Positions 32,250-55,412 are shown, counted from the stretch's first letter. The stretch is 62,142 bases of DNA from an uncultured Clostridia bacterium (GCA_937907305.1 CALERQ010000194.1:1-62142); one strand, 5' to 3'. A program made the numbers and translations. Notes: generated by a model not told the origin, from the letters alone.

Positions 32250-32328
32250 CGCCCGCAGGGCAGCCCGACGAAGTCGGGCTCGGCGGCTTTGCCGCCGGTT
32301 TCGGCGCAGCCGAAACGCCCTGCGGGCG
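32250..32328. repeat. Four-way-junction/GNA-triloop element 1
   Basis: Outer stem CGCCCGCAGGGC/GCCCTGCGGGCG encloses three perfect hairpins (loops GAA, TTT, GCA) with no unpaired junction bases. Confidence 0.8.
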
Positions 32329-32458
32329 ACTGCCCCGGCAAAAATACCGGACAAGGGGCAGTAATGCCGGCGGCATCTTGCGGGGAGGCACCGCAATATG
32401 ATATAATGAAGCTGCCGAAGGCGAGTAAGACCCAAGGCGAGAGAAAGGAGCGCTGCCG

Positions 32459-32932
32459 ATGAATGGGATCCAAGTTTTTCTGGCGGCCTATGCCCAGCCG
32501 CTCATTTGGCTGGCTGTGGCGCTGGTCATGCTCATCATAGAAGCCGCCACGGTGCAGATGGTGAGTATCTGGTTCTGCCTGGGGGCGGTGGCCGCGGCCA
32601 TCGCGGCGATCCTGGGTGGTTCCATCCCGGTGCAGATCGTTGTATTTGTGGTGATCTCCGGGGTGGCGCTGGCCTTTACCCGCAAGTTTGTAAAAAAGGT
32701 GCTGCGGGTGAAAAAGACCCCTACCAATGCCGACAGCGTCATCGGCGCCATCGGGCAGGTGGTAGAACCCATCGACGATGAGGCCGGGACCGGACGCATC
32801 AAGGTGGAGGGCATGGACTGGAGCGCCCGCACCACCGATGGCAGCAAGCTGCCGGAGGGCGCCAAAGTAAAGGTAAGATCTATCGTAGGTGTTAAACTGA
32901 TGGTGACCGCCATCAGAGAAAAGGAGGACTAA
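32459..32932 (+). CDS. NfeD-family protein
   Basis: TM N-terminus, IG..G.V...I.....GRIKV.G.DWSAR OB-fold; precedes SPFH gene. Confidence 0.88.
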   Translation: MNGIQVFLAAYAQPLIWLAVALVMLIIEAATVQMVSIWFCLGAVAAAIAAILGGSIPVQIVVFVVISGVALAFTRKFVKKVLRVKKTPTNADSVIGAIGQVVEPIDDEAGTGRIKVEGMDWSARTTDGSKLPEGAKVKVRSIVGVKLMVTAIREKED

Positions 32933-32937
32933 TTTAT

Positions 32938-33852
32938 ATGCCGATCATTATTATTCTGCTCGTGCTCATCATTATCCTGCTGGTTACCAACATCCGCGTG
33001 GTTCCGCAGGCGACCGAGTTCGTTATTGAGCGCCTGGGTACCTACTACACCACCTGGGAGACCGGCCTGCACTTTAAGGTGCCGCTGGTGGACCGTGTGG
33101 CCAAGCGCATCTCCCTGAAGGAACAGGTGATGGATTTTGCGCCCCAGCCGGTTATCACCAAGGATAATGTCACCATGCAGATCGATACCATTGTATTCTA
33201 CCAGGTGACTGATGCCAAGCTGTATACCTACGGCGTGGAGCGGCCCATTCTGGCCATCGAGAGCCTGACCGCCACCACCCTGCGTAATATCATCGGCGAT
33301 ATGGAGCTGGACCACACCCTGACCTCCCGCGATGTTATCAACAGCCGCATCACCGCCGCGCTGGACCAGGCCACCGATAAGTGGGGCATCAAGGTAAACC
33401 GTGTGGAGCTGAAGAATATCGTGCCGCCGCGTGATATTCAGGACGCCATGGAGAAGCAGATGCGTGCCGAGCGTGAGCGCCGTGAGGCGATCCTGCGTGC
33501 CGAGGGTGAAAAGCGCAGCCAGATCCTGATTGCCGAAGGTAAGAAGGAAAGCCAGATCCTGAACGCCGAGGCCGAAAAGCAGGCGGCCATCCTGCTGGCG
33601 GAAGCCGAGAAGGAAAAGAAGATCCGTGAGGGCCAGGGCGAAGCCGAGTCCATCATGCTGGTGCAGAAGGCGCAGGCCGATGCCATCCGCCTGCTGAACG
33701 AGGCCTGCCCCAGCAAGGAAGTGCTGCAGCTGAAGGCCTACGAGAGCTTTATGAAGGCGGCCGACGGCCAGGCGACCAAGATCATCATTCCCAGCGAGAT
33801 CCAGGGCATGGCGGGTCTGGCGGCCTCCGTCAAGGAACTTGTCAAGGAATAA
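32938..33852 (+). CDS. SPFH/stomatin (band 7) protein
   Basis: VIERLG, VITKDNV, TTLRNIIG, AMEKQMRAERERR. Confidence 0.93.
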   Translation: MPIIIILLVLIIILLVTNIRVVPQATEFVIERLGTYYTTWETGLHFKVPLVDRVAKRISLKEQVMDFAPQPVITKDNVTMQIDTIVFYQVTDAKLYTYGVERPILAIESLTATTLRNIIGDMELDHTLTSRDVINSRITAALDQATDKWGIKVNRVELKNIVPPRDIQDAMEKQMRAERERREAILRAEGEKRSQILIAEGKKESQILNAEAEKQAAILLAEAEKEKKIREGQGEAESIMLVQKAQADAIRLLNEACPSKEVLQLKAYESFMKAADGQATKIIIPSEIQGMAGLAASVKELVKE

Positions 33853-33866
33853 GCCAAAATTTTAGT

Positions 33867-33902
33867 AAAAGCGCTGTCCCCTATGGGATGGCGCTTTTTT
33901 TC
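33867..33902 (+). terminator. Intrinsic terminator
   Basis: AAAAGCGCTGTCCC/GGGATGGCGCTTTTTT. Confidence 0.75.
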
Positions 33903-34004
33903 GGCTTGTGCTATAATGGAGACGGAGATCCCCGTCCGGGGTAGAGGCGGGGGAGGTGCCGGGCCACGCTTCCGGCCGGCACCCAAATAGAGGAGGACGC
34001 AAAA

Positions 34005-34592
34005 ATGGCAAAGCTGTACTTCAAATATGGGGCAATGGGCAGCTCCAAATCGGCCCAGGCACTCATCACCAAGTTCAATTATGAGGAGCTGGGCATGACC
34101 GTCTGGCTTATCAAGCCCTCGGTGGATACCCGGGACGGCGCCGATATCATCAAATCCCGCATCGGTCTGGCCAAAAAGGCGGATATCATCCTGCCGGAGG
34201 ATAACATCATCGAAAAATTCGACCAGCACCCCGGCATGGATGTCATCATTGCCGATGAGTGCCAGTTTTTCACGCCGGAGCAGATCGACCAGCTGCGGGC
34301 GCTGGTGGATGAGCGGGATATGCCGGTCATCTGCTTTGGCCTGCGCACCGACTTTTTGACCCACCTGTTCCCGGGCAGCCGCCGCCTTTTTGAGGTTGCG
34401 GATTCCCTGACCGAGATAAAGACCGTGTGCGCCTGTGGGCACAAGGCGACCGTCAATGCCCGTATAGTGGATGGCAAGGTGGCCACCGAGGGTGAGCAGG
34501 TTTTCCTGGGCGGCAATGAAAGCTATGTGGCCATGTGCTACAAGTGCTGGCAGGAGAAAATAAAAAAACAGCGGGAGGAGGATAATCAATGA
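34005..34592 (+). CDS. tdk: Thymidine kinase
   Basis: YGAMGSSKS, DECQF, FGLRTDF, C.CG.KA..NAR, GGNESY. Confidence 0.95.
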   Translation: MAKLYFKYGAMGSSKSAQALITKFNYEELGMTVWLIKPSVDTRDGADIIKSRIGLAKKADIILPEDNIIEKFDQHPGMDVIIADECQFFTPEQIDQLRALVDERDMPVICFGLRTDFLTHLFPGSRRLFEVADSLTEIKTVCACGHKATVNARIVDGKVATEGEQVFLGGNESYVAMCYKCWQEKIKKQREEDNQ

Positions 34593-34768
34593 GCGATAAC
34601 CTGAGATTGACGCTGGGCGGCATTGTGCTGATGCTGGCGGGGTTGTTTCTGCTGGGCATCTGTGTTTTAAGCGGCGGAAATGGCTTCTACCCCGATATCG
34701 CGGCCGCTATCTGCGGCGCCGCCGGGCTGGTATTGGCGGTGGTCGGCATTTTTCGGGGGGAGAAATAA
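34589..34768 (+). CDS. 59-aa two-TM small protein (not in ORF track)
   Basis: GGAGGAGG RBS, ATGA overlap with tdk stop, fills the tdk-ybaK gap. Confidence 0.75.
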   Translation: MSDNLRLTLGGIVLMLAGLFLLGICVLSGGNGFYPDIAAAICGAAGLVLAVVGIFRGEK

Positions 34769-34773
34769 ACACC

Positions 34774-35256
34774 ATGGCGAAGGATAAAAGCGATAAAACC
34801 AATGTAATGCGCCTGCTGGAGCAGAAAAAGCTGCCCTACACCCCGCATGATTACCTGGCCACCGGCGCGGTAAGCGGGGTGGAGGTGGCGGCGGCACTGG
34901 GCGAGCCGCCCGAGCGGGTCTTTAAGACGCTGGTGACCACCGGCGCCTCCGGCGGACACTTTGTGTTCGTCATTCCCGTGGCGGAGGAGCTGGACCTGAA
35001 GAAGGCCGCCAAAGCGGTGGGCGAAAAGAGCATCGCCATGCTGCCGCAGAAGGAGCTGCTGCCCCTTACCGGCTATATCCACGGCGGGTGCAGCCCCATC
35101 GGTATGAAAAAGCCGTTCCCCACTGTACTGCATGAGAGCGCGGCGAATTGCGACACCATCTGCGTCAGCGCCGGCAAGGTCGGCTTTCAGGTGGAGCTTT
35201 CCCCCGCCGACCTGCAAAAGATGCTGCCGATGAAGCTCTGCGATGTGATAAAATAA
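34774..35256 (+). CDS. ybaK: Cys-tRNA(Pro) deacylase
   Basis: KTNVMRLL, VFKTLV, TGYIHGGCSPIGMKK, SAGKVG. Confidence 0.93.
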   Translation: MAKDKSDKTNVMRLLEQKKLPYTPHDYLATGAVSGVEVAAALGEPPERVFKTLVTTGASGGHFVFVIPVAEELDLKKAAKAVGEKSIAMLPQKELLPLTGYIHGGCSPIGMKKPFPTVLHESAANCDTICVSAGKVGFQVELSPADLQKMLPMKLCDVIK

Positions 35257-35259
35257 GCG

Positions 35260-35296
35260 CAAAAACGCCCGCCATATGGCGGGCGCGTTTTGTTTT
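35260..35296. terminator. Bidirectional terminator
   Basis: AAAAACGCCCGCC...GGCGGGCGCGTTTT. Confidence 0.75.
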
Positions 35297-36038
35297 AGCT
35301 GGCGGGGGTGAATTCGCAGGAGAGATACCGCAGCTGCAAGCCCAGCAGCGGACTTTCCCATTCCTCCCACTCCAGTGTGCTGGTGCCGATCAGGAAATCG
35401 GTGGGGAGAATGCTGCCGTGCATCAACCGATTGCAGCAGTCCTCATAGGATTCATCTGGATCGCCGCCCTGCCCATAGCCGTTGCCGTAGACGGAGAAAA
35501 CCCCCTTGTAGTGGTTTTCCCCCAACTGTTCCAGATGGGTCAGTACCATAAAGTTGGGGATGTTGCCGCCCCAGCCGGTAGATTCCACATTCCCAGCCTG
35601 CGTCAGGGTGGTTTTGCTGGTTTCATACTGGGTGATGGGCTCGCCCAGGTATTCCATGGCGGCCCGGTCATATTCCGCCTTGGGGTAGGAGTAGGTCACT
35701 TCTTTTCCAGCGGCCCGTTCCTCGGCGGCCAGCTTTACCAGCACATAGGCGGCCCGGCTATCGGCGGCTTCCTTTTGGTCGGCGGCGGGATACAGCAAAA
35801 AGATATCGGCGTTATTATAGGAATTCTGGAAATACTCAAAATACTTCTGCACATCGGGGTCGATGGGGGTATTGTCCGGCTCGATGACGGGGTCCGGTTC
35901 CGTCACAGGATCGGGCTGGGTGGTGATAGGGTCGGGGTCGGGCGTCGGCTCCGGGACGGGGGTGGGCTGGCTGCCGCAGGCGGTCAGCAGCAGGGCAAGG
36001 CACAGGGTCAGTGTCAGGATCCAGGTCAGCTTTTTCAT
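35295..36038 (-). CDS. Hypothetical lipoprotein with Pro/Thr/Asp-rich linker
   Basis: MKK-hydrophobic-LTAC lipobox, GGAGG RBS. Confidence 0.8.
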   Translation of the reverse strand: MKKLTWILTLTLCLALLLTACGSQPTPVPEPTPDPDPITTQPDPVTEPDPVIEPDNTPIDPDVQKYFEYFQNSYNNADIFLLYPAADQKEAADSRAAYVLVKLAAEERAAGKEVTYSYPKAEYDRAAMEYLGEPITQYETSKTTLTQAGNVESTGWGGNIPNFMVLTHLEQLGENHYKGVFSVYGNGYGQGGDPDESYEDCCNRLMHGSILPTDFLIGTSTLEWEEWESPLLGLQLRYLSCEFTPAS

Positions 36039-36276
36039 GTGGTTTCCTCCCGTTGGTGACATTGGTGTTAGGCTTACACTATATATAACGAACGAGCGCC
36101 GCAAAATGCAACACGCTTTTGCAAAAAAACTGCGGCAAGGAAGATCTTTCCTTTGTTTCATTATACATAAGGGGGGGTGAAAGTCAAGCGCGGCCCCATA
36201 AGCGGGACAGAACGCAAAAACACCCCGCCGCAGGGGCAGGGGCAGGGTGTTCGTGTGCTTTTAACCGCAGGCAGCC

Positions 36277-36537
36277 TTAGTCGGTGACATAGGGCAGCAG
36301 GGCCAGATGACGGGCACGCTTGATCGCGGTGGTCAGCTGACGCTGATGGCGGGCGCAGGTACCGGTCACGCGGCGGGGAACGATCTTTCCACGCTCGGAC
36401 AGGTAGCGGCGCAGACGCTGGGTGTCTTTATAGTCGATCATCTCGATCTTATCGGCACAGAAAGCACAAACCTTTCTGCGGGGACGACGGTCGCGGTTCA
36501 TGGGTCTCTCGGGTCTTTCGGTACGCTCCATAGCCAT
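36277..36537 (-). CDS. rpsR: 30S ribosomal protein S18
   Basis: [31 protein letters not shown]. Confidence 0.97.
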
Positions 36538-36582
36538 GGTTCAAACCTCCTTATTAGAATGATGAAACAGTTTTCGTTGGGA

Positions 36583-37086
36583 TCAGAAGGGCAGGTCGTT
36601 ATCGCTTTCCACTTCCTCAAAGTCGCTGGCAGCACCGCTGGTATAGGCAGGCTGCGCGGGAGCGGGGGCGGCGTAGCTGTTATCGCCATAGCTGTTATTG
36701 CCATAGCTGTTATTGCCATAGCTGTTATTGCCATAGCTGCCGCCATTGCCGGAACCGGCATTGCTGGAGCGTGCGCCGGTAAAGAATACATTATCGGTCA
36801 CGATCTCGGTGGCGGTGCGCTTGTTGCCGTTTTTGTCCTCGTAGTTGCGGGTCTGGATAGAGCCCTCAATGCCGATGACATCGCCCTTGTGGAAGTAGCG
36901 GCAGACGAATTCTGCCTGCTGACGCCAGGAAGTGATGTTGATAAAGTCAGTCTTGCGCTCGCTGTCCCGGCCGGAAAAACGGCGGTCCACAGCGATGCTG
37001 AAGCTGCATACAGAGATCCCGCTCTGGGTCTGTTTCAGCTCCGGGTCTGCGGTCAGGCGACCGATGAGAATGGCTTTGTTAAACAT
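36583..37086 (-). CDS. ssb: Single-stranded DNA-binding protein
   Basis: NKAILIGRLTADPEL, C-terminal DLPF; YGNNS repeats in linker. Confidence 0.97.
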   Translation of the reverse strand: MFNKAILIGRLTADPELKQTQSGISVCSFSIAVDRRFSGRDSERKTDFINITSWRQQAEFVCRYFHKGDVIGIEGSIQTRNYEDKNGNKRTATEIVTDNVFFTGARSSNAGSGNGGSYGNNSYGNNSYGNNSYGDNSYAAPAPAQPAYTSGAASDFEEVESDNDLPF

Positions 37087-37098
37087 TACATCATCTCC

Positions 37099-37395
37099 TT
37101 AGTTCTCTTTTGCAATGATGAGAGAACGGATCACGCCTTCAGTGATCTTGTAGATACGATCCAGCTCGGCAGGGAACTCGTGGGGAGCAGTGAAGTTGAC
37201 GAGAACATAGTAGCCTTCCTGCTCGTAGTCGATTTCGTAAGCCAGTCTGCGCTTGCCCCACTCATCGATGGAATCGATGGTGCCGTTGGCAGCGATCAGA
37301 TCGGTAAACTTCTTCACCAACTCGGCGGTGGCTTCCTCGGTCAGCTTGTTGCTCAGTACGAATACTGTCTCATAGCTCTTGGTCAGGTTTGCCAT
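37099..37395 (-). CDS. rpsF: 30S ribosomal protein S6
   Basis: YETVFVL, EWGKRRLAYEI, GYYVL. Confidence 0.97.
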   Translation of the reverse strand: MANLTKSYETVFVLSNKLTEEATAELVKKFTDLIAANGTIDSIDEWGKRRLAYEIDYEQEGYYVLVNFTAPHEFPAELDRIYKITEGVIRSLIIAKEN

Positions 37396-37401
37396 ACTTT
37401 A

Positions 37402-37455
37402 CACCTCCTTATGGACTTTCGCCCCCCACACAGGGCAGGGGGAAGGAGTCATGCC
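37402..37455 (-). promoter_or_regulatory. Putative S6:S18 autoregulatory leader hairpin
   Basis: ACTCCTT pairs with AAGGAGG SD of rpsF; promoter TTGACT-17-TATAAT at 37508-37480. Confidence 0.55.
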
Positions 37456-37547
37456 ATGAAAATTTAGCACAACATAGGAATTATACCAATAAAAAAACCG
37501 CAAGTCAACACCCCGGACCTGCGGTTTTTGCTTTATTTTCGTACTTT

Positions 37548-38552
37548 TTACAGCATAAAGAGGGAAGTGACGATGGAAGAGACCGAAAGCAGCCCGATGA
37601 CGATGAGAAATACCAGCAGCCAGCTGGTGCCGCCCATGCGGGAAAGGTTCTGGTAATACTGCTGGGTGCCGGCCGCCGCGTGGCCGCGGTAGCGCTGGAT
37701 GCGGACCTGCTGGGTGATCTTCTTGAGGTAGAAATAATTGAAGAACAGGGAGCACAGCACACTGAGCACCAGCCCGCCGTACTGCACGATGGCGGAGGTG
37801 GAAACCAGCGCCTGATAGTAGGGGGAAAGGGTATTGATGTGCATAAACTCACTGAGGGTGGTGGCCCCCGCGGCCATCAGTTCCTGGAAGTAGGGGATAT
37901 AATTGATGGCAAAGGGGATATAGCAGGCGGCCTTTATGGCCAGCAGGATGCCGCCCAGGGCATACATCTTGCGGTAGAAGCAGTACAGCCCGGTGAACAG
38001 GAACGCCCCCAGGTTAAAGCTCACAGCGGTCTTGCGCTGCAGCATCGCCCGGAATTTGTATAGGAAGTTCAGGGCATTGGGCCCCACATAGGCGGCCACC
38101 TCCCGGGCGGTCAGCTCATCGCCCAGCTTTTCATTGGGGTTTACATTGTACTGGTCGCGCACATATTCCGCAAAGGTCCCGCCGTCCTCGGTCTCGCGGT
38201 CCCCAGCCGGGATGCGCTCGCCGGTCTCCTTCAGCGGGTAACCGCACAGGTCGCAGCGCTCCTGCCCGGCAGGGTTCACGGTGCCGCAGCGGCTGCACAT
38301 CACATAGCCTTCGCCGTCTGTACTGTTCTGGGGTGCATGCGGCTGCTCCTCCAGCGGAACGGAAGGCCCCGGGGCGGCCTTGGGCGGCTGCCACACATAG
38401 CCTTCGGTATGGCGGGCCTCATTGACACAGTGGCCCAGTTCTTTATAGCAGGCGCGGTGGTAGGGCGTGCCGCACTCCGGGCAGACGACCACATCGTCTT
38501 CCGCGGTAAATTTTTTGCCGCAGGCCGCGCAGGGGATACCGATGTATTTCAC
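37548..38552 (-). CDS. Zinc-finger (RING-like + ribbon) membrane protein with DUF2628-like domain
   Basis: CAAC...CPECGTPYHRACY, CSRCG...CDLCG, FNLGAFLF...YRKMY; AGGAGG before GTG. Confidence 0.8.
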   Translation of the reverse strand: MKYIGIPCAACGKKFTAEDDVVVCPECGTPYHRACYKELGHCVNEARHTEGYVWQPPKAAPGPSVPLEEQPHAPQNSTDGEGYVMCSRCGTVNPAGQERCDLCGYPLKETGERIPAGDRETEDGGTFAEYVRDQYNVNPNEKLGDELTAREVAAYVGPNALNFLYKFRAMLQRKTAVSFNLGAFLFTGLYCFYRKMYALGGILLAIKAACYIPFAINYIPYFQELMAAGATTLSEFMHINTLSPYYQALVSTSAIVQYGGLVLSVLCSLFFNYFYLKKITQQVRIQRYRGHAAAGTQQYYQNLSRMGGTSWLLVFLIVIGLLSVSSIVTSLFML

Positions 38553-38813
38553 AAAAAATTTCCTCCTTGTCGGAACTCTACCGAATATTATAGTATACCC
38601 CCGGGGGCAATTCAATGGACTTTCGGTGAACAAATCGTATTTTTAATGCTTTTTTTGGCAAATTTCCGGGAATCATTTTACAAGAGCCCATAAATATGAT
38701 AAAATAAATCGGATAATGAATAAGTGCAACATAAAATACGGGGAGTAAACAAGATGTAGATATAATACGAATTGTAATAACATAAGACTATATACAGGAA
38801 AGGTTAAAAGATT

Positions 38814-39932
38814 ATGCTGCAATTTGAAGAACTGCGCCTGAAGCTCCAGGGTATGGAGCCGGAGCTTCGGGAATTAAAACAATCCCTCAATATTGATAAG
38901 CTGGGTATCGAGATCGCTGAGCTGGAGCGCAAGGCCGCGGAGCCCAGCTTCTGGGATGACATGGAAAACAGCCAGAAGGTGCTTCAGCGCACCTCCCAGC
39001 TCAAAGCCAGCGTGGAGACTTACAATAAGCTGCAATCGCTGTACGAGGATACCCTCACCCTTATCGAGCTGGCGGAGGAAGCCGGCGATGAAAGCGTGTA
39101 CGAGGAAGCCGCCGCTGATACCGAGCAGCTGCAAAGCCGCATGGCGGAGGTCCGCCTTACCACCCTGCTTACCGGTGAATACGATAGCAAGAATGCTATC
39201 CTCACCTTCCATGCGGGCGCGGGCGGCACCGAGGCCCAGGACTGGGCCCAGATGCTGTACCGCATGTATACCCGCTGGGCGGAGCGCCACGGCTACTCTT
39301 ATAAAATTCTGGACTACCTGGATGGCGATGAAGCGGGCATCAAGAGCGCTTCCATCCTCATCGAGGGTCTGAACGCCTACGGCTTCCTCAAATCGGAAAA
39401 CGGCGTGCACCGCCTGGTGCGTGTTTCCCCCTTTGATGCCAGCGGCCGCCGTCAGACCTCCTTCGCCTCGCTGGAGGTCATGCCGGAGATCGACAAGGAT
39501 GTGAACATCGAGATCCGTGAAGAGGATATCCAGATGGATGTGTACCGGGCCAGCGGCGCCGGCGGCCAGAAGGTAAATAAGACCTCCAGCGCCGTGCGTT
39601 TGACCCACCTGCCCACCGGCATCGTGGTGGCCTGCCAGGTGGAGCGCAGCCAGCACCAGAACCGCGAAGTCGCCATGAATATGCTGCGCAGCAAGCTGGT
39701 GGAAATTAAGGAGCGCGAGCACCTGGATAAGATCGAGGACATCAAGGGCGTGCAGAAGGAGATCGCCTGGGGCAGCCAGATCCGCTCCTATGTGTTCATG
39801 CCCTACACCATGGTCAAGGACCACCGCACCAACTACGAAACCGGCAATATCACCGCCGTTATGGATGGCGACCTCGATGGCTTCATCAATGAGTACCTGA
39901 AGAAAAAGAGCCAGGGCACCCTGGAAAAATAA
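38814..39932 (+). CDS. prfB: Peptide chain release factor 2 (single continuous ORF)
   Basis: SPF anticodon motif, GGQ, WGSQIRSY; no CTTTGAC site. Confidence 0.96.
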   Translation: MLQFEELRLKLQGMEPELRELKQSLNIDKLGIEIAELERKAAEPSFWDDMENSQKVLQRTSQLKASVETYNKLQSLYEDTLTLIELAEEAGDESVYEEAAADTEQLQSRMAEVRLTTLLTGEYDSKNAILTFHAGAGGTEAQDWAQMLYRMYTRWAERHGYSYKILDYLDGDEAGIKSASILIEGLNAYGFLKSENGVHRLVRVSPFDASGRRQTSFASLEVMPEIDKDVNIEIREEDIQMDVYRASGAGGQKVNKTSSAVRLTHLPTGIVVACQVERSQHQNREVAMNMLRSKLVEIKEREHLDKIEDIKGVQKEIAWGSQIRSYVFMPYTMVKDHRTNYETGNITAVMDGDLDGFINEYLKKKSQGTLEK

Positions 39933-39984
39933 TTCCCACCGATGCCATATCGGTGGAAAGCATATTAAGGGAGGGCAAAGACCA

Positions 39985-41070
39985 ATGAAGAAATGCGCCA
40001 AAGTTTTTTCCGTTATCCTTGCTGTTATGATGCTGGCATCCCTTGCCGCCTGCGGCGCCGAAAAGGTGAAGATCACCCCCACTGCCGCCCGGTCTATCGA
40101 GACCGAGGTGTACGAAACAGCGGATTTCAGCATCACTATCCCCAAGGGCTGGGTGGTCACCGCCGGCGGCGAGAATATCTACCACAGCATCCGTGTTTAC
40201 GATCCGGAAGAACCCATGAATCAGATGTTCAGCCTGCTGAAAGCCGATGTGCTGCTGCACAGCCAGGAGGGCAAAAAGGCGTGGCAGTATATGGCCGGCA
40301 TCGGCAGCCCCGGCGCTTCGCTTTTTGCGCAGGCCGCTGTGCTGGGAACTCCCTCCACCGAGGGCTTTTATCAGATCTTCCCCGATTATACCGCCTTTGT
40401 GATGCAGGTGGAGCCCAGCTATGCGGGCTACACTTTCCCCACCTTCAATGACTTTACCGTGACCGAGCAGTTCCCCTTTACCAGCGGCCTTTCGGCCTAT
40501 GCCCTGGGGGAGGAGCTGCTGCGGGGCACCTTTACCGATGGTGAAAAATCCGGCGAGGGCCTCTTTGCGGCCACCGTGGTGGATTTTGGCAGCTTTGCCA
40601 TCTCCGATGGCACCATGGATGGCTACCTGCTGCGGCAGGTGGATGGCGGCTACTACATGGCCTATAATATCATGGCCGTCACAGCGGTAAAGGATACCTT
40701 CATCGAGTGGGAGAGTATCCTTACCGAATGCATGAAAACGCTGCAATATTCCGAGAGCTTTGTCAGCGCCGCCAACCAGGCCAGCGATGAGCAGGTCGCC
40801 CTCTCCCAGCAGATCAGCCAGAGCTTTAATGATACCATGGATGGCATGATGTCCTCCTGGGAAAGCCGCAATAAGAGCCAGGATATCCTCAGCCAGAAGC
40901 AGAGTGACGCCACCCTGGGCTACGAGCGGTTCTACGATACCGAGACCGGCGAGATCTACCGCGCCACCAATGGCTTTGGCGATAGCTACGATGGCAAGCG
41001 CTATCAGCCCGTCACCGATGACAACATGTATACCGAAGCCATCAGCGGCTACATCGAACGCCTCGATTGA
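39985..41070 (+). CDS. Hypothetical lipoprotein
   Basis: LAAC lipobox, host-like codons. Confidence 0.8.
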   Translation: MKKCAKVFSVILAVMMLASLAACGAEKVKITPTAARSIETEVYETADFSITIPKGWVVTAGGENIYHSIRVYDPEEPMNQMFSLLKADVLLHSQEGKKAWQYMAGIGSPGASLFAQAAVLGTPSTEGFYQIFPDYTAFVMQVEPSYAGYTFPTFNDFTVTEQFPFTSGLSAYALGEELLRGTFTDGEKSGEGLFAATVVDFGSFAISDGTMDGYLLRQVDGGYYMAYNIMAVTAVKDTFIEWESILTECMKTLQYSESFVSAANQASDEQVALSQQISQSFNDTMDGMMSSWESRNKSQDILSQKQSDATLGYERFYDTETGEIYRATNGFGDSYDGKRYQPVTDDNMYTEAISGYIERLD

Positions 41071-41195
41071 CCCACATAAAACCAACCCCGACCGGTGAGT
41101 TTACTCACAGGCCGGGGCATTTTTATGGGGTAATTGGCTATCATCAAATCAATATTGTGTATCCCCATAAACTTTAATTCCGTGAAGGCGAGCGT

Positions 41196-43952: not shown

Positions 43953-44039
43953 CGGGCCGCAGGCCGCCCCGGCTGCGCCGGGGCTGGGGGCCTCTCGGCC
44001 CCCTACGGCCGTCCGCAGGACGGCCGGGCCTGCGGCCCG
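43953..44039. repeat. Four-way-junction/GNA-triloop element 2
   Basis: Outer stem CGGGCCGCAGGCC/GGCCTGCGGCCCG encloses three hairpins (loops TGC, TCTC, GCA). Confidence 0.8.
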
Positions 44040-44220
44040 CACCCCGGTCCCTGCTTTTCCCCGCCCAGCCGCAGCCGCGGCAGCGGGGCAAAATTCCAGC
44101 TTTGATTATACCACAAGAAAATCTTAATGAGAACTAAAAAAATGAAATTCCCGCGAACGGTTGCTTTTGCCGGGCCAAAAAGGTTATAATAAAGGAAATC
44201 CACCGAAAGAAGGCCGTAAA

Positions 44221-46053: not shown

Positions 46054-46111
46054 TTTTTTTCGCAAAAGGGATTGCCTTATCCACCATCTTGGTGTATAAT
46101 ATACAGGCATC

Positions 46112-46188
46112 GGAGGCGTAGCTCAGCTGGTCAGAGCGCCTGCTTCACACGCAGGAGGTCCACGGTTCGAGCCCGTGCGTCTCCACCA
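46112..46188 (+). tRNA. tRNA-Val(CAC)
   Basis: GGAGGCG/CGTCTCC acceptor, anticodon loop TT-CAC-AC, GGTTCGAGCCC, CCA; promoter TTGCCT-17-TATAAT 46072-46100; terminator 46190-46225. Confidence 0.96.
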
Positions 46189-47030: not shown

Positions 47031-47117
47031 AACATCCCGGCTAAAGGCGGAGCCTTTATTTTTTGCTTTGCAATGTGGTATAATCCCATTGTGACTAACC
47101 CACAGGAGGAACAGTTG

Positions 47118-47969
47118 ATGCGGCAGTACAATAAAGTCTATCTGGAGATCACCAACCGGTGCAATTTGCGCTGCAGCTTTTGCCCCGGTACCCGGCGGCC
47201 GCCCCGCACCATGTCCCCGGCGGAGTTTCGCCTGCTGGCGGAAAAGCTGCGCCCGGCCACCCGCTACCTCTATCTCCACCTGATGGGCGAGCCGCTGCTG
47301 CATCCCGAGCTGCCGGTGCTTTTGGCCATAGCCGGGGAACTGGATTTTTTGGTGAACATCACCACCAATGGCACCCTGCTGCCCCAGGTGGGAGAAACTC
47401 TGCTGGCGGCTCCTGCCATCCGTAAGGTCAGCATTTCCCTGCACAGCCTGGAGGCCAATGGCAGCCGGGTCTTTTCCGCCTACCTGGAGGGCTGCATTTC
47501 CTTTGCCAAAAGGGCGGCCGCCGCGGGCAAATTGACCGGCCTGCGCCTTTGGAATCTGGATGGTTCCCTTCCCGGGCAGAACGACCTGAATGCCCCCATG
47601 CTGGAGGAGCTGCACCGGGCTTTTCCGGGAGAGTGGCCACCGGTACGGGAGGGACATAAAATAGCAGAGCGAATCTATCTAGAATTTGGCGAGCGCTTTG
47701 AATGGCCGGATCTTTCCGCCGGGGAGCGGGAGGGAGATGCCTTTTGCTATGGGCTGCGGGACCAGTTTGGGGTGCTGTGCGATGGCACCGTGGTGCCCTG
47801 CTGCCTGGACCGCGAGGGCGACCTGGCCCTGGGAAACCTCTTTAGCCAGCCGCTGGAGGAGATCCTTTCCTCACCCCGGGCAAGGGCCATCTATGAGGGC
47901 TTTACCGGCCGCCGCGCCGCCGAGGAACTGTGCCGGAAATGCGGCTATGCCCGCCGCTTTATCCGGTGA
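47118..47969 (+). CDS. Radical SAM protein with SPASM/twitch domain
   Basis: CNLRCSFC, MGEPLLHP, TTNG, DGTVVPCCLD, LCRKC. Confidence 0.9.
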   Translation: MRQYNKVYLEITNRCNLRCSFCPGTRRPPRTMSPAEFRLLAEKLRPATRYLYLHLMGEPLLHPELPVLLAIAGELDFLVNITTNGTLLPQVGETLLAAPAIRKVSISLHSLEANGSRVFSAYLEGCISFAKRAAAAGKLTGLRLWNLDGSLPGQNDLNAPMLEELHRAFPGEWPPVREGHKIAERIYLEFGERFEWPDLSAGEREGDAFCYGLRDQFGVLCDGTVVPCCLDREGDLALGNLFSQPLEEILSSPRARAIYEGFTGRRAAEELCRKCGYARRFIR

Positions 47970-48167
47970 TTTGGGCAATGTGATAAAGAACCTGCCAAGA
48001 TTTCGAAAAATCTTATATATTCGCCGTATTACTTTTATATTCCAAATATGATATACTAATAAGACTATGGCGGGGCCGCTGCCCTGCCGCAATAGGTATA
48101 TCCCCCGGCGGAGCAAAAAAAGCCGGGGCCGACGGAGAAAATGTGAAAACAAGGAGGTGTTGGTTCA

Positions 48168-48857
48168 ATGGGTAATCTATCAGAATTCCTGATGGAGGAG
48201 CTGAATGTGGCGACTGCCTTTACCATCCCGATATTCGGCGGGATAGAAGTGGCGGAATCCACCGTGATCTCCTGGGTCATCATGGCCATTATCGTGTTCC
48301 TTACCCTGGTACTGACCAGAAACATGAGGGTGGAAAAGCCCGGCAAGCTGCAGGTAGGTGTGGAATACGCCGTCACGGCCCTGCAAAATCTCGTCCGTGG
48401 GATCATCGGTCACGAGGGAGAGCGCTATGTCCCTTATTTGTCAACCTTGCTGGTCTTTTTGGGTATTTCCAATATCTTTGCCATCTTTGGCATGAAGCCC
48501 CCCACCAAGGACCTGAATGTAACCGCCGCGCTGGCGCTGATGTCCATTATTCTGGTGCAGGTGGCGTCCATCCGGCAGAACAAGGTGGGCGGCTGGCTGA
48601 AGGGCTTTACCAAGCCCTCCAAGGTCATTACCCCGCTGAATGTGATGGAGCTGGTTATCCGGCCACTTTCGCTGTGTATGCGTCTTTTCGGTAATGTCAT
48701 GGGCGCCTTTGTAGTGATGAAGCTGCTGGAGCACCTGGTGCCGGTCATCCTGCCCGCGGTGTTCAGCCTGTATTTCGATTTCTTTGACGGCCTGCTGCAG
48801 GCCTATGTATTCGTGTTCCTCACCGGGCTGTATATCAAGGAAGCCGTAGAGGAATGA
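48168..48857 (+). CDS. atpB: F0 subunit a
   Basis: RPLSLCMRLFGN, LQAYVF. Confidence 0.95.
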   Translation: MGNLSEFLMEELNVATAFTIPIFGGIEVAESTVISWVIMAIIVFLTLVLTRNMRVEKPGKLQVGVEYAVTALQNLVRGIIGHEGERYVPYLSTLLVFLGISNIFAIFGMKPPTKDLNVTAALALMSIILVQVASIRQNKVGGWLKGFTKPSKVITPLNVMELVIRPLSLCMRLFGNVMGAFVVMKLLEHLVPVILPAVFSLYFDFFDGLLQAYVFVFLTGLYIKEAVEE

Positions 48858-48904
48858 CCCAAGGAAAAATATTAAATTACATGTGATTTGAAGGAGAAAA
48901 AACT

Positions 48905-49123
48905 ATGGGTACTTTTGTTGCAATCGGCGCGGGTATCGCGGTTCTCACCGGCATTGGCGCCGGCATCGGCATTGGTATTGCTACCGGTAAGGCCACCGAG
49001 GCAGTAGCCCGTCAGCCGGAGGCGGACGGCAAGATCAGTAAGCTGCTGCTGCTGGGCTGCGCCCTGGCGGAAGCCACCGCCATCTACGGCTTTGTTATTG
49101 CCCTGCTGCTGCTGGTACTGTAA
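48905..49123 (+). CDS. atpE: F0 subunit c (EAT motif, likely H+-type)
   Basis: [21 protein letters not shown]. Confidence 0.97.
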
Positions 49124-49155
49124 GCGAAAAATAGAGAAAGGAAGGCAAGAGCAAG

Positions 49156-49656
49156 ATGCTGAGATTAGATATCAATCTCGTATTTACCGTCATCAATCTG
49201 CTGGTTCTCTATTTCTTCATGCGCAAGTTTTTGTTCGGCCGGGTCAATAAGATCCTGGAAGAACGCAAAGCGCTCATCGAGAAGCAGTTTGCCGATGCCC
49301 AGGCTGCCCAGGACGCGGCTGACGGCATGAAGACGGAGTATGAAAATAAGCTGGCCGCCGCCCAGGGCGAGGGCGAGGAGATCATAGCGCGCGCGAAGGC
49401 CGAGGCAAAAGAGCAGAGCGAAAAGCTGCTGGCTGCCACCGATGCCGAGCTGGAGCAGAAGCGCCGCCGGGCCGAGGAAACCATGGCGGTGGAGCGTGCC
49501 AACGCCCTGCGGGATATGAAGAGCGAGATCGCCACTTTGGTGATAGACGCCGCGGCCAAGGCGGTAGGCGACCGGAACACCGAGCAGCAGGACAGAATGC
49601 TGTACGATAAGTTTATCGCGGAAGCAGGTGAAGCACATGGCGGCAAGATCCAGTGA
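49156..49656 (+). CDS. atpF: F0 subunit b
   Basis: N-terminal TM, long coiled coil, operon position. Confidence 0.93.
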   Translation: MLRLDINLVFTVINLLVLYFFMRKFLFGRVNKILEERKALIEKQFADAQAAQDAADGMKTEYENKLAAAQGEGEEIIARAKAEAKEQSEKLLAATDAELEQKRRRAEETMAVERANALRDMKSEIATLVIDAAAKAVGDRNTEQQDRMLYDKFIAEAGEAHGGKIQ

Positions 49657-51487
49657 CGGCAAGCTGCAGGAGCTGCTGGGCACCCTGAAGACGGACGGCG
49701 TGGAAGCGCTGGACCAGCTGATGGACGCCTATGAGGAGCGCCGGGCCGAACGGGCGAGCCGTCCAAAAGCGATCCTGCGGTATGTGACCCCCCCGACTGC
49801 CGAACAGCTGGGGCAGATTCGGGACTTTTTGCGGAAGAAGTACGAAAACGAAGAGCTGCCGCTGGAGCTGGTGGAGGATAAAAGCCTGCTGGGCGGTTTC
49901 TGCATCACGGTGGGCAGCGAGGAATACGACTGGAGCATGAAGGGCCGCCTGACCCAGATGAGAAACCGTCTGACCCAGACGCCCCAGATGCTTTCCGATT
50001 CCAGCGAGGTCATTGACCTGCTGCGCACCGAAATAGACGCGGCCGCCTTTGACGGCAAGGACCACGAAGTGGGCGAGATCCTGCGGGTGGGCGACGGTGT
50101 TGCCACCGTTTCCGGCATCCGTCATGCCGCCTACGGCGAGATCGTGCAGTTTGAAAGCGGCGTAAAGGGCATGGTACAGGATATCCGCCGCGAGGAGACC
50201 GGTATCATCCTGCTGGGCAGCGAAAAGGGCCTTTTGGCCGGCGGGCGCGTGGTGCGTACCGAGCGCCGCGCGGGTGTGCCGGTGGGCGAGGCCTTCCTGG
50301 GCCGTGTGGTGGATGCCATGGGCACCCCCATTGACGGCAAGGGCGAGGCGGTGCCGGCCGGTTACCGTCCCATCGAAAATGCCGCCCCCGGCATCAAGGA
50401 CAGAAAGTCCGTCTCGGTCCCGATGGAGACCGGTATTCTGGCCATTGACAGTATGTTCCCCATTGGACGGGGACAGCGTGAGCTGATCATCGGCGACCGG
50501 CAGACCGGCAAGACCTCCATTGCCACCGATACCATCCTGAACCAGAAGGGCAAGGGGGTCATCTGCATCTATGTGGCCATTGGGCAGAAGGCCTCCACCG
50601 TGGCCAAGGTGGTTTCCACCCTGCAAAACCACGGAGCCATGGAGTATTCCATCGTGGTTTCGGCCACAGCCAGCGATCCGGCCTCCCTGCAATACATTGC
50701 CCCCTATGCCGGTACCGCTATGGCGGAGTACTTTATGTACCAGGGACGAGATGTCCTCATCATCTACGATGATCTTTCCAAGCACGCGGTGGCCTATCGT
50801 TCGCTGTCGCTCATTCTGGAGCGCAGCCCCGGCCGTGAGGCCTACCCCGGCGATGTATTCTACCTGCACAGCCGCCTGCTGGAGCGCAGCAGCCGTCTGA
50901 CCCCTGAAATGGGCGGCGGTTCCATTACCGCGCTGCCCATCATCGAAACGCAGGCCGGCGATGTTTCGGCTTATATTCCCACCAATGTTATTTCCATCAC
51001 CGATGGTCAGATCTACCTGGAGACCAATCTCTTTAACGCGGGCCAGCGCCCGGCCGTCAATGTCGGCCTTTCGGTTTCCCGCGTGGGCGGCGCCGCCCAG
51101 ACCAAGGCCATGAAAAAGGCCAGCGGTTCCATCCGCATTGACCTGGCGCAGTACCGCGAGATGGAGGTCTTTACGCAGTTCAGCAGCGACCTGGATGACA
51201 CCACCCGGGAGCAGCTGGCCTACGGCAAGGGCCTGATGGAGGTGCTGAAGCAGCCGCTGTACCGTCCGCTTTCCATGGCGGAGCAGGTCATCACCCTGGT
51301 GGTGGCTACGGCCAAGGGCTTCCTGGAGGTGCCGCTGGCGAAGATCAAGGATTACCAGATGGGACTTCTGGACTACATCCGGGAGAACCATGGGGAGATC
51401 GTGACCGAGCTGGAGGAGACCAAGGCCCTGACCGACGAGCTGCGGCAGGCGATCCTGACGGCGGCCGCCGAATACAAGGGCAGGTGA
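49637..51487 (+). CDS. atpA: F1 subunit alpha with N-terminal fused delta (OSCP) C-domain
   Basis: EDKSLLGGF.I.VG...YDWS.KGRL delta-like segment in frame with GDRQTGKT, PGREAYPGDVFYLHSRLLER. Confidence 0.93.
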   Translation: MAARSSDGKLQELLGTLKTDGVEALDQLMDAYEERRAERASRPKAILRYVTPPTAEQLGQIRDFLRKKYENEELPLELVEDKSLLGGFCITVGSEEYDWSMKGRLTQMRNRLTQTPQMLSDSSEVIDLLRTEIDAAAFDGKDHEVGEILRVGDGVATVSGIRHAAYGEIVQFESGVKGMVQDIRREETGIILLGSEKGLLAGGRVVRTERRAGVPVGEAFLGRVVDAMGTPIDGKGEAVPAGYRPIENAAPGIKDRKSVSVPMETGILAIDSMFPIGRGQRELIIGDRQTGKTSIATDTILNQKGKGVICIYVAIGQKASTVAKVVSTLQNHGAMEYSIVVSATASDPASLQYIAPYAGTAMAEYFMYQGRDVLIIYDDLSKHAVAYRSLSLILERSPGREAYPGDVFYLHSRLLERSSRLTPEMGGGSITALPIIETQAGDVSAYIPTNVISITDGQIYLETNLFNAGQRPAVNVGLSVSRVGGAAQTKAMKKASGSIRIDLAQYREMEVFTQFSSDLDDTTREQLAYGKGLMEVLKQPLYRPLSMAEQVITLVVATAKGFLEVPLAKIKDYQMGLLDYIRENHGEIVTELEETKALTDELRQAILTAAAEYKGR

Positions 51488-51491
51488 CGGT

Positions 51492-53767
<2,276 letters not shown>

Positions 53768-53791
53768 CGACCGGAAAGGAGAGGTGCCAAA

Positions 53792-54202
53792 ATGGAGACC
53801 TTTACCCTGAAGGTGATCGGGTTTTCCCGTGTTTTTTACGAAGGGGAGGCGGTGCAGGTCCAGCTGCCGATCCAGGATGGCTCGATGGGCATTATGGCGC
53901 ACCATGAGGCCGCGGTCATCGGCATTGTGCCGGGGATGATGCGGCTGCAAACGCCGGACGGCGAGTGGCAATCCGCTGTGGTGGATGCGGGCTTTGCCCG
54001 GGTGGGCGAGAATACCGTATCGGTGATGGTGGAAGAGGTGCTGCGGCCTGAGGAGATCGACGAGGAGCGCGAGCGCCGGGCGCTGGCTGAGGCGCAGGAG
54101 GAGCTGCGCCAGAAGCACAGTGTGCTGGAATGCCAAAACGCCGAGATGACCATTCTGCGGAGCCTGGCCAGGCTGCACGCCAAGGGGATTTATCTTTCGT
54201 AA
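53792..54202 (+). CDS. atpC: F1 subunit epsilon
   Basis: G.MGIMAHH, GFA.V, EEID..R, C-terminal helices. Confidence 0.92.
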   Translation: METFTLKVIGFSRVFYEGEAVQVQLPIQDGSMGIMAHHEAAVIGIVPGMMRLQTPDGEWQSAVVDAGFARVGENTVSVMVEEVLRPEEIDEERERRALAEAQEELRQKHSVLECQNAEMTILRSLARLHAKGIYLS

Positions 54203-54281
54203 TATTGATTTTAAGTGACGAAAAGGGAGCTGCCTGCTGGAAAGCGGGCGGCTCCCGTGCTATACTGGGGGAAGAAGAAAA

Positions 54282-54402
54282 GCCTGCGAAGGAGGGGCGG
54301 CGGAGCCGCCGGCCCCTACGGGGCCGGTGACCCGCGCGCCCGCAGGGCGCGCGGGGGCGGGGCGGAGCCCCGCAGCTCCGCCGCAGATGCGGGCCCCGCA
54401 GG
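54282..54402. repeat. GNA-triloop hairpin array (junction-element relative)
   Basis: GGCGGC-GGA-GCCGCC, CCGGCCCC-TAC-GGGGCCGG, CCCGCGCGCCC-GCA-GGGCGCGCGGG. Confidence 0.6.
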
Positions 54403-54424
54403 AAGTGGAGAAGGAGAAAAAGCG

Positions 54425-55252
54425 ATGAGTATATTCTGCTGCCCAAACTGTCAAAAGCCGCTGCGCCGGGAAGAGCACCGGCTGGTGTGCCAGGCGGGGC
54501 ATAGCTTTGATGTGGCGAGGAGCGGGTATGTGAACCTGCTGCTGAGCCAGCAGACCGGCCAGAAGCACCATGGGGATGACAAGCGGATGGTGAAGGCGAG
54601 AAGTGCTTTCCTGGAGCGGGGGTACTACGACCCGATGCGGCAGGCGCTGATAAAGCAGGGCCTGGCGGCGGCAAAGCAGGGCATGACAGTGCTGGATGCT
54701 GGCTGTGGGGAGGGCTACTATACCGCGGAGCTGGCCAAAACGCTGCGGGAGCAGGGATACCGGCCGGAGGTGGCGGGAATCGATATCTCCAAGGCGGCGC
54801 TGCAGGAGGCGGCCAAGCGGGACGGAGAGAGCGAATACGCGGTGGCAAGCTGTTTTCATCTGCCGGTGGCGGGGGGAAGCGTGGACCTGCTGCTTTCGGT
54901 CTTTGCGCCGTACTGTGGGGAGGAGTTCCTGCGGGTGCTGAGGACGGGCGGGCAGTTTATCATGGTCATCCCATTGGAAAATCACCTGTACGGGCTGAAG
55001 GAGGCTATCTACGAAAAACCATACCGCAACGAAGTGAAGCCGTATAAGCTGACAGGTTTCCGGCTGGTGGAGTGCCGGGAGCTGCGGTATGAGATGACGG
55101 TGCGGGGGCAGGAGATCGAAGATCTCTTTATGATGACGCCGTATTACTACAAGACAGGGGCGGCGGACCAGCAAAAGCTGCTGGCGAAAACGGAGCTGAC
55201 GACGCCGGTGGAATTTGCAGTGCTGAGATACGAAAAGGAATATAACGCTTAA
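54425..55252 (+). CDS. RlmA-type 23S rRNA guanine-N1 methyltransferase
   Basis: CPNC...C..GHSFD.A..GYVNL, GD...M..AR..FL..GYY, LDAGCGEGYY, MTPY. Confidence 0.85.
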   Translation: MSIFCCPNCQKPLRREEHRLVCQAGHSFDVARSGYVNLLLSQQTGQKHHGDDKRMVKARSAFLERGYYDPMRQALIKQGLAAAKQGMTVLDAGCGEGYYTAELAKTLREQGYRPEVAGIDISKAALQEAAKRDGESEYAVASCFHLPVAGGSVDLLLSVFAPYCGEEFLRVLRTGGQFIMVIPLENHLYGLKEAIYEKPYRNEVKPYKLTGFRLVECRELRYEMTVRGQEIEDLFMMTPYYYKTGAADQQKLLAKTELTTPVEFAVLRYEKEYNA

Positions 55253-55324
55253 TTACTACAAATAGTATAATTTGAGACAAAAAGGTAGGGCAACTCTTTG
55301 ATGCAGGTGCGTGGGGAGCGGAAG

Positions 55325-55412
55325 GCGGCCCGCAGGGCAATTCGTCCGCAGGACGAATTCGGCGGCCGGAGGCCGCCTGCGGCGCCGGAACGGCGCCGGC
55401 CCTGCGGGCCGT
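55325..55412. repeat. Four-way-junction/GNA-triloop element 3
   Basis: Outer stem GCGGCCCGCAGGGC/GCCCTGCGGGCCGT encloses three hairpins with loops GCA, GGA, GAA. Confidence 0.8.

Follow-up and report, generated by a model that had tools for sequence, protein, structure and literature searches.

A family of DNA repeats folding into four-way junctions, apparently of the REP/REPIN kind, in Angelakisella-like Oscillospiraceae

Between positions 32,250 and 55,412 of a 62,142-nucleotide stretch of DNA from an uncultured Clostridia bacterium (GCA_937907305.1, CALERQ010000194.1:1-62142; this whole stretch is called the window below), several short GC-rich elements of about 80-90 bp lie between the genes. 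A reading made from the sequence alone had described three of them, plus a looser relative, as an outer stem enclosing exactly three hairpins, and had proposed that they are single-stranded DNA elements selected for their structure, without recognising a named family. What are these elements, does their structure matter as DNA or as RNA, and are they mobile or resident? The four elements of the window are numbered copies 1, 2, 3 and 4, copy 4 being the looser relative, and have the following parts:

32250-32328, plus strand (the strand carrying the GNA loops): copy 1, outer stem of 12 bp with the core GCCCGCAGGGC/GCCCTGCGGGC, three hairpins with the loops GAA, TTT and GCA
43953-44039, minus strand: copy 2, outer stem of 13 bp with the core GGCCGCAGGCC, three hairpins with the plus-strand loops TGC, TCTC and GCA
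54297-54384, plus strand: copy 4, outer stem of 10 bp (GCGGCGGAGC...), three hairpins with the loops TAC, GCA and GGA
55326-55411, plus strand: copy 3, outer stem of 13 bp with the core GCCCGCAGGGC, three hairpins with the loops GCA, GGA and GAA

Every element was folded by itself, on both strands and under both DNA and RNA parameters, and each of these 16 folds was compared with 200 dinucleotide shuffles. For all four elements and in all 16 folds, the minimum-energy shape was an outer stem of 10-13 bp around exactly three hairpins, in agreement with the topology drawn by the sequence-only reading. The folds reached -46 to -60 kcal/mol with the DNA parameters (z -6.7 to -9.8) and -69 to -98 kcal/mol with the RNA parameters (z -5.4 to -9.0), and in each of the 16 cases none of the 200 shuffles folded as well as the native element. 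The absence of unpaired bases at the junction of copy 1, already noted from the sequence, was seen in its fold. As for the loops, said to be mostly GNA on one strand, the plus strand has GNA in 8 of its 12 inner loops, in agreement with that description; for copy 2, the minus strand is the better one to read. Since each outer arm could form a small hairpin of its own, five separate hairpins had been put forward as an alternative form. With DNA parameters, the four-way form was found at -42.8 against -33.4 kcal/mol for copy 1 and at -44.4 against -35.8 kcal/mol for copy 3; being better by about 9 kcal/mol, the junction is therefore the expected single-strand form.

In order to search for this topology independently of sequence, a scanner was used which accepts any outer stem of at least 7 bp around two to five adjacent perfect hairpins. 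In the 62-kb window, it found four sites only (32250-32328, 43953-44039, 54297-54384 and 55326-55411), with three hairpins each. It gave no hit in 60 dinucleotide shuffles of the whole window; when the four local regions (63% GC) were shuffled 2000 times, no three-hairpin hit and a single two-hairpin hit arose. Because the scanner finds the same topology in copy 4, this copy is a full member of the family with a different outer-arm sequence, and the label of looser relative no longer applies; its outer arm, GCGGCGGAGCCGC, was found again at 1283-1372 of locus L072 (loci of the genome-collection scan described below carry such numbers). Copies 1, 2 and 3 were recovered by the model R1 with E values of 2.5e-13, 3e-6 and 1.1e-9, respectively. 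Copy 4 was not recovered by this model, which is dominated by the canonical arm; the sequence-blind scanner was the better detector. The exact 11-mer GCCCGCAGGGC occurs five times in the window, every time within an element, and in copy 4 it sits at the tip of the middle arm.

The same architecture is repeated in related genomes. A genome collection was scanned with the pattern GCCCGCAGGGC, 40-70 free bases and GCCCTGCGGGC, the inner part being unconstrained. At least 113 loci were obtained, holding 114 unique matches among the matches listed; the sample thus consists of contigs matching the canonical outer arm, and differing arms came to light only where they flanked a canonical copy. Among the loci listed, 66 came from seven related genomes (two Angelakisella metagenome-assembled genomes, 'Ruminococcaceae' UMGS979 and UMGS1551, Oscillospiraceae W2P20.011, W0P39.008 and UBA11522), and the other 47 from scattered high-GC taxa. 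All 67 unique matches listed from the clade enclosed three inner branches, 60 of them as three simple hairpins. Among the 47 matches listed from the other taxa, 38 enclosed one branch, eight enclosed two and one enclosed three. These other taxa provide a natural control, and the outer-arm pattern alone therefore does not carry the topology.

The scanner led to the same picture. On 194 kb of clade loci (overlaps counted, loci chosen around copies), it detected 76 elements, 73 of which had three hairpins; the other three were a composite in L050 and two damaged copies in L070, each detected only in part. Among the 73, 17 had outer arms other than the canonical one. On 133 kb of loci from the other taxa, it gave no hit. 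The window is about 94% identical to UMGS979 over 30262-33626, from which it follows that its organism belongs to the Angelakisella-like clade. We conclude that the elements form a real family, confined, among the sampled matches, to Angelakisella-like Oscillospiraceae. The density of copies is uneven, with four in the 62 kb of the window and at least six in one 38-kb contig of W2P20.011. In two places, the copies are not solitary: at L050 (3149-3260), the element runs on into further hairpins and a repeated right arm, and at L070, two near-identical copies (2001-2082 and 2279-2359) lie 278 bp apart with flanks that are near-identical too.

No named family was recognised in the original sequence, and database searches were in line with this. 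At the gathering score, the sole Rfam match in the window was a transfer RNA at 46112-46185, and at E≤1 over 32000-55700, three Rfam matches were found, none of which overlapped an element. Copy 1 had no match in phage and plasmid collections (blastn, 11-base words, E≤0.001). In the literature searched, which comprised titles and the first lines of abstracts outside the subscription journals, no four-way-junction or REP-type repeat was described in this clade. The family is apparently an undescribed variant of the REP/REPIN kind.

The anatomy of the family was established on 69 copies, namely the 67 listed clade matches and copies 1 and 3 of the window, which together hold 207 loops. The inner arms are mostly 7-9 bp long, and their 1682 pairs comprise 1425 G-C, 242 A-T and 15 G-T pairs, with twelve unpaired bases in total within the arms; 43 of the 69 copies have no unpaired base at the junction. 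Ninety-one loops are GNA (53 GCA, 21 GAA, 13 GGA and 4 GTA), 73 are the complement TNC and 43 are of other kinds. The closing pair is 5'-C...G-3' in 200 of the 207 loops. Such a C:G closing pair stabilises d(GCA) loops by about 2-3 kcal/mol (PMC3201870).

To follow the pairing across copies, 150 matches were aligned on a model built from 32 clean copies; in this alignment, which is fitted to the structure and in which both strands stand as rows, 99.2% of the paired cells were complementary, against 75.7% in shuffles. Compensatory changes on both sides were present in 31 of the 35 pairs, including all 24 inner pairs. The covariation score was 0.553 against 0.104, none of 500 shuffles attaining 0.553, and sliding the partner by 1-3 columns lowered the pairing to 41.6% at most. 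That the stems stay paired, as had been claimed from the copies of the window, thus holds for the family as a whole, which is structure-maintained. The accompanying statement that the inner arm sequences are largely unrelated had to be amended: although 108 distinct arm strings were counted among 207, certain types (G[CT]T[CT]CGGC, CGGCGG.. and A[AG].CCGCC) recur throughout the family.

The outer arms follow a rule of their own. They are 10-14 bp long and are inverted copies of a self-palindromic 11-13-mer, typically GCCC-GCA-GGGC. Outer arms other than the canonical one include GGCCGCAGGCC, GGGGCGCAGCCCC and GCGGCGGAGCCGC, and the non-canonical arms in flanks include GGCC-GCA-GGCC, GGGGC-GCA-GCCCC, GCCCC-GCA-GGGGC, CGCC-GCA-GGCG, GCCC-GGC-GGGC and GCGGC-GGA-GCCGC. 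About 15 of the 18 differing outer arms among the loci, as read from the scanner output, are self-complementary around a three-base centre, and both variant outer arms of the window are self-palindromic as well. The remark that each outer arm is itself a mini-hairpin has thus become a general property. An outer stem that merely had to pair would do without it, so that the self-palindromy of the arms is not needed for the stem, and it points to an origin or a recognition as an inverted pair of small palindromes. The outer stem was also considered to extend into the flanks as a rule, which was rejected: own flanks gave barely better energies than others (-51.5 against -49.1 kcal/mol, p 0.019), and the count of left-right flank pairs did not separate own from different copies (p 0.34). 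Long extensions of the outer stem are present in some copies (L010, L093, L094, L107 and L109).

The elements have a direction, given by GNA loops and a purine-rich 5' flank that stand on one and the same strand. Thirty-four elements have three loops that are all either GNA or TNC; in 14 of them all three are GNA, in 11 all three are TNC and in nine they are mixed, whereas about nine of the 34 would be expected by chance to have all loops the same way. When the flanks were oriented by the loops, the 5' side proved to be purine- and G-rich, with T in only 1-9 of 68 copies at each position from -14 to -3. The words GGGGA or GGGGC were found in 30-34 of 67 left flanks, against 1-3 in the reverse complement of those flanks. 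On the 3' side, a CCGG..TGCAG..CCGG-like module is frequent, and TGCA begins at +11 to +20 in 24 instances among 67 right flanks. Over the 69 copies, the loop polarity agreed with the purine-rich side in 51 cases and disagreed in nine, the other nine being ties. In the window, these flanks are:

32237-32249, plus strand: 5' flank of copy 1, a purine/G-rich tract AGGGGAGAGGGGG directly adjoining the element on the GNA strand
44040-44072, minus strand: 5' flank of copy 2, C/T-rich on the plus strand and hence purine/G-rich on the minus strand
54268-54296, plus strand: 5' flank of copy 4, purine-rich
55313-55325, plus strand: 5' flank of copy 3, purine/G-rich
55412-55436, plus strand: 3' flank of copy 3, CGTATCCCGGATGCTGCAGGGACTGG, with a CG(T/A)A...CCGG..TGCAG..CCGG-like module seen 3' of many copies

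As the loops of copy 2 taken alone are a tie, its minus polarity was taken from the flank.

The polarity of the loops was then compared with the direction of transcription and with strand composition. Neither the direction of the flanking tandem genes (four classes with 8, 7, 10 and 10) nor the coding-strand majority at the locus (agreement in 23 of 46) was related to it. In contrast, it matched the sign of the GC skew, measured over about 4 kb around the element with the element and 100 nt per side excluded, in 34 of 46 cases (binomial p 0.0016; Spearman 0.55, p 8e-5), and in 19 of 21 where the absolute skew exceeded 0.08. At the 15 loci where skew and coding majority are in conflict, polarity went with the skew 13 times and with the coding majority twice. 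All four window copies fit the skew pattern, copy 2 as assigned by its flank. In the window, the cumulative skew climbs from about 24 kb to the end, and the rpsF-ssb-rpsR genes (36277-37395) are on the minus strand despite the positive GC skew there, so that the skew in this genome is not simply set by gene direction. Polarity is thus tied to strand composition. The constraint acts at the DNA level: the stems are perfect Watson-Crick on both strands, the loops are C-GNA-G triloops or their complement, and the strand with the GNA loops and the purine-rich 5' flank tends to be the G-rich one. The G-rich strand is the one made as the leading strand; it then serves as the template of the lagging strand and is single-stranded at the fork. 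A polarity that follows skew and not transcription offers a handle on whether proteins read folded single-stranded DNA at the fork in these bacteria.

The elements turn over at conserved sites, and they do so in an unusual way. On the GNA strand, the recurrent arm types stand in the order A-B-C in 22 copies and C-B-A in 21, and both orders are present in four genomes. In W0P39.008, the same three stems are found in both orders (L077, at 3776, and L053). These forms are not interconvertible by simple inversion, because an inversion would complement the loops too. Furthermore, in seven pairs of orthologous loci from different genomes, with flanks 74-89% identical, the element lies in the same place with different arms that are still paired; copy 2 and the Angelakisella locus L093 are one of these pairs. 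Between L004 and L111, the arm order is equal and all three loops are of reversed polarity, and between L013 and L072, the inner part is inverted as a whole. The uncoupling of arm order from loop polarity and the replacement of arms at conserved sites bear on how such palindromes stay perfect.

Occupied and empty orthologous sites were also compared. L100 is occupied and L071 empty, the extra DNA being hardly more than the junction itself; at L100, the element lies between a stop codon and a T-tract terminator. The site of copy 1 differs between the window (32216-32370) and locus L034 of UMGS979 (1258-2129), whose flanks are about 94% identical. Where the window has copy 1 alone, L034 has a gene for a HAD-family hydrolase and a differently placed junction element, a difference that amounts to the gain or loss of a gene beside the repeat. 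Copy-specific direct repeats were not found in the flanks: the longest shared word averaged 5.88 in own and 5.59 in unrelated flanks (p 0.08), and one 10-base direct repeat was seen, at L005. A GCAG-purine word was considered as a target-site duplication and rejected, since it recurs on both sides of many copies and is a motif of the family, not of the copy.

The window is core chromosome of a Clostridia-type organism with about 60% GC, and its four copies are all intergenic. Copy 1 has an unnamed gene on one side and nfeD on the other. Copy 2 is flanked by a diverging TSCPD gene and by a minus-strand DnaD-like gene, upstream of which it lies by about 55 nt. Copy 4 is between atpC and an rlmA-like gene, and copy 3 between the latter and a converging livF-like gene. 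Across the copies of the family, the neighbours are core genes, among them atpC, rlmA, dnaD, recA/recX, gyrA, argS, valS, prfC and eno. None of the 62 predicted proteins of the window carries a transposase, integrase or HUH domain; the single IstB-like match is a DnaC-like loader beside the DnaD-like gene.

The evidence leans, if only slightly, towards the view that these elements are REPIN-like nested-palindrome DNA repeats, which act as single-stranded DNA and are mobilised or bound by a protein encoded elsewhere. The two inverted mini-hairpin arms pair and enclose the three hairpins, so that a four-way junction forms on either strand. In the mechanism proposed, the active form would be a single strand folded at the replication fork, because the G-rich strand, as the lagging-strand template, is exposed there in single-stranded form. 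The folded strand might be recognised by a structure-specific protein encoded elsewhere in the genome, an HUH/Y1-type enzyme being the leading candidate. If replication switches templates from one inverted arm to the other, this would keep the stems perfect and flip both loops and arm order, and selection for compact GNA loops, acting specifically on the exposed strand, would then set the polarity.

In architecture, the REPIN is the closest known system. Like REP, BIME and REPIN sequences, the elements are short, GC-rich, extragenic, high-copy palindromes, and like REPs they are retained at orthologous sites, lie close to gene 3' ends and show no target duplication. A REPIN is an inverted pair of small palindromes which forms a larger single-stranded DNA hairpin around a less conserved spacer, and in REP doublets, as here, the inverted, self-palindromic outer arms are the best-conserved part (PMC3116915). 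The spacer of the present elements, however, is not loose but always holds exactly three perfect hairpins. In addition, the elements lack the GTAG or CGTC tag of REPs and their stems are perfect, their host is a Firmicute, and no RAYT gene was found among the 62 window proteins and 174 proteins flanking other copies. In the extracts of a survey of GTAG/CGTC-tagged REPs, the words 'Firmicutes' and 'Clostridi' have no occurrence (PMC3733652). The ends of IS200/IS605 elements and of their miniature derivatives, which transpose as single strands ('peel and paste'), offer a second comparison, as they share recognition of hairpins on one strand, the absence of target duplication and a link to the lagging-strand template (PMC6006769, PMC3333891); a tie of this type would explain a polarity that follows GC skew. 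Their ends nevertheless consist of two imperfect hairpins that lie on one strand, the guide and cleavage sequences being some way off, whereas the present elements have perfect, inverted arms, and the 62 and 174 proteins included no TnpA.

Several observations weigh against the REPIN-like reading. The linked HUH/RAYT or nuclease gene that the sequence-only reading led one to look for did not turn up, there being no Y1/HUH/RAYT or other transposase domain in the 62 window and 174 copy-flanking proteins. Within 10 nt of the foot, GTAG stands in 3 of the 69 copies and in 3 of 67 in the background, and GTGG in 7 of 69 against 5 of 67. The E. coli TnpA-REP needs both GTAG and a mismatch in the stem (PMC3333891), whereas the stems here are perfect. 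The lack of flanking direct repeats fits single-strand transposition but fits equally well no transposition at all, and persistence at the seven orthologous pairs could just as well mean a host function without mobility. Simple transposition of a single master copy would not lead one to expect an arm order independent of loop polarity. Finally, the skew over about 4 kb is a mere proxy for fork direction, some of the loci counted overlap or are in tandem and so are not independent, and the copies were sampled, among the matches listed, from contigs with the canonical arm only. As regards the proposal of a structure-selected single-stranded DNA element, its structural part stood, with maintained stems and marks of a constraint at the DNA level, and the search for an HUH or RAYT partner among the 62 and 174 proteins gave nothing; its suggestions of a junction mimic or a priming signal are conjecture. 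That the elements are a REP-like repeat family acting at the DNA level is much firmer than their mobilisation by an HUH enzyme.

To our knowledge, nearly all that has been learnt of REP-like repeats and of their biology as single strands comes from Proteobacteria and from a small number of other phyla. The family would bring a new host group, an abundant lineage of gut Clostridia, and an architecture far stricter than that of REPs, in which the inner hairpins number exactly three, the stems are perfect, the triloops DNA-specific and the arms self-palindromic.

A broader possibility, which we put forward tentatively and by analogy, is that the elements represent an unrecognised class of chromosomal single-stranded DNA element: at each passage of the fork, a nuclease-resistant C-GNA-G four-way junction might form on the lagging-strand template and be read by a dedicated protein. 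That protein, encoded by the host or by the element, might read it in the manner of Tap on the telomere hairpins of Streptomyces or of primase on phage complementary-strand origins. Strand-specific selection, acting on frequent hairpin flips and resetting the polarity, would then explain why arm order is uncoupled from loop polarity and polarity nevertheless tracks the skew. The 3' overhang of the Streptomyces telomere is the nearest known system in fold, the likeness being one of structure only. There, a terminal self-palindrome (Palindrome I) pairs with a distal one (Palindrome IV) around two C-GCA-G hairpins with sheared G:A loops, and can fold on itself instead; the fold acts as single-stranded DNA recognised by a protein, Tap, and the compact GCA-type loops resist single-strand nucleases (PMC4513846). 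The 'rabbit ear' ends of autonomous parvoviruses offer a likeness of the same kind (PMC4513846). The telomere differs in having two hairpins and a three-way junction, in lying at the chromosome end, once per end, and in its end-patching by Tap/Tpg. The present elements have three hairpins and a four-way junction and are internal, intergenic and in many copies, in a Firmicute lineage with circular genomes; no Tap or Tpg was identified around the copies, no search by those names having been made.

That the elements are instead host-selected, non-mobile DNA sites for a protein recognising junctions or hairpins, vertically inherited and exchanging arms by gene conversion, appears unlikely. Such sites might serve in nucleoid organisation, for gyrase, in replication restart or priming, or in fork pausing. 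This would agree with the seven orthologous pairs in which the element keeps its place between flanks 74-89% identical, with the core-gene neighbours (from atpC to eno), with a polarity that tracks GC skew, and with the absence of target duplications and, among the 62 and 174 proteins, of a transposase. The likeness of the fold to the Tap-bound overhang of Streptomyces (PMC4513846) would agree with it too. It does not readily account for the presence/absence differences between related genomes, for the uneven density (four per 62 kb in the window against at least six in the 38-kb contig of W2P20.011) or for the tandem and nested copies (L070, L050), and no candidate protein was identified.

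An element acting as RNA, that is, a stable structure in untranslated regions which protects 3' ends, forms a barrier to transcription or translation or serves as a processing site, as proposed for E. coli REPs, is more doubtful still. As RNA, the elements fold just as strongly as they do as DNA (z -5.4 to -9.0), and the copies usually lie some tens of bases past a stop codon, typically 20-100 nt in tandem-gene contexts; the L100 element stands between a stop codon and a T-tract terminator. Sites with extended -10 motifs, at 44133-44105 on the minus strand and at 54238-54266 on the plus strand, are promoter-like by consensus match only; with transcription from them, the DnaD-like/DnaC-like genes would have copy 2 in their 5' untranslated region, and the rlmA-like gene would have copy 4 in its own. 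The missing orientation bias is compatible with an RNA too, because a perfect palindrome gives equal stems either way. Nevertheless, G-U-type pairs are as rare as 15 in 1682, no commoner than other mismatches when both strands are counted, and the loops are the DNA-stable C-GNA-G triloop and not RNA tetraloops. Loop polarity bears no relation to gene direction (23 of 46) and tracks GC skew (34 of 46), the elements have no Rfam match, and an RNA would have no evident need of outer arms that are self-palindromic. The four window elements are not terminator-like either: a role as terminators was rejected, since none appeared in a terminator scan and none has a T-tract, the T-tract terminator of L100 being a separate structure downstream.

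Lastly, it is improbable that the elements are functionless by-products, that is, GC-rich quasi-palindromes made or perfected by template-switch errors and neutral in intergenic DNA. In favour of this are the perfect stems in spite of 108 distinct arm strings, and the loop flips and inversions at orthologous sites (L004/L111, L013/L072), which are outcomes expected from switching between inverted repeats (quasipalindrome correction). A process of mutation alone, however, leaves several regularities unexplained: that the inner hairpins number three (73 of 76), that the outer-arm word is conserved, that C:G closes 200 of 207 loops, that GNA retains its G and A around a variable middle base, and that the loops are co-oriented with flank and GC skew.

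Two further kinds of element resemble the family in part. The attC sites of integrons keep a structure while their sequence varies, and they are recombined as a folded single strand of which one strand is active (PMC3458562). Here, by contrast, there are no extrahelical bases, no cassette arrays and no integrase nearby, and the neighbours are core genes; R and L boxes were not noted in the elements, the core-site consensus not having been searched for. Correia, ERIC, BOX and RUP are bacterial miniature inverted-repeat elements, and as such they are small, non-coding and dispersed, with terminal inverted repeats and strong predicted folds. The present elements differ from them in having no consistent target-site duplication, in sharing a topology and arm types and not one consensus, and in that no related insertion sequence was seen. 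In addition, a sigma-54 promoter was considered for the TTGCA motif on the 3' side and rejected, as spacing and GG element do not fit when judged by eye only.

The repeat is a marker for the clade, and it is a likely cause of assembly breaks and over-long gene calls. In nine loci (L004, L029, L045, L056, L057, L062, L067, L072 and L074), neighbouring genes, among them those of enolase, AddB and an FtsW-like protein, have longest open reading frames that continue through the elements, which are GC-rich and free of stops. Start-codon calls beside copies are therefore likely to be too long.

A second dispersed repeat was seen in the window. It is AT-richer, about 200 bp long, and lies at 160-356, 20937-21140 and 26380-26760, with hairpin words of the type ..CTTTTC..GAAAAG... 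Its hairpins are at 269-297, 20997-21025, 21219-21245, 21309-21337, 21428-21446 and 21547-21565. Parts of it match L022, L017 and L056 at 72-85%, so that it is common to the clade too. Finally, a perfect 23-bp hairpin with a 4-base loop is located at 22863-22913; it is A/T-rich, its stem is bordered on both sides by A and T runs, and it sits in the gene-poor stretch of 22.5-23.6 kb.

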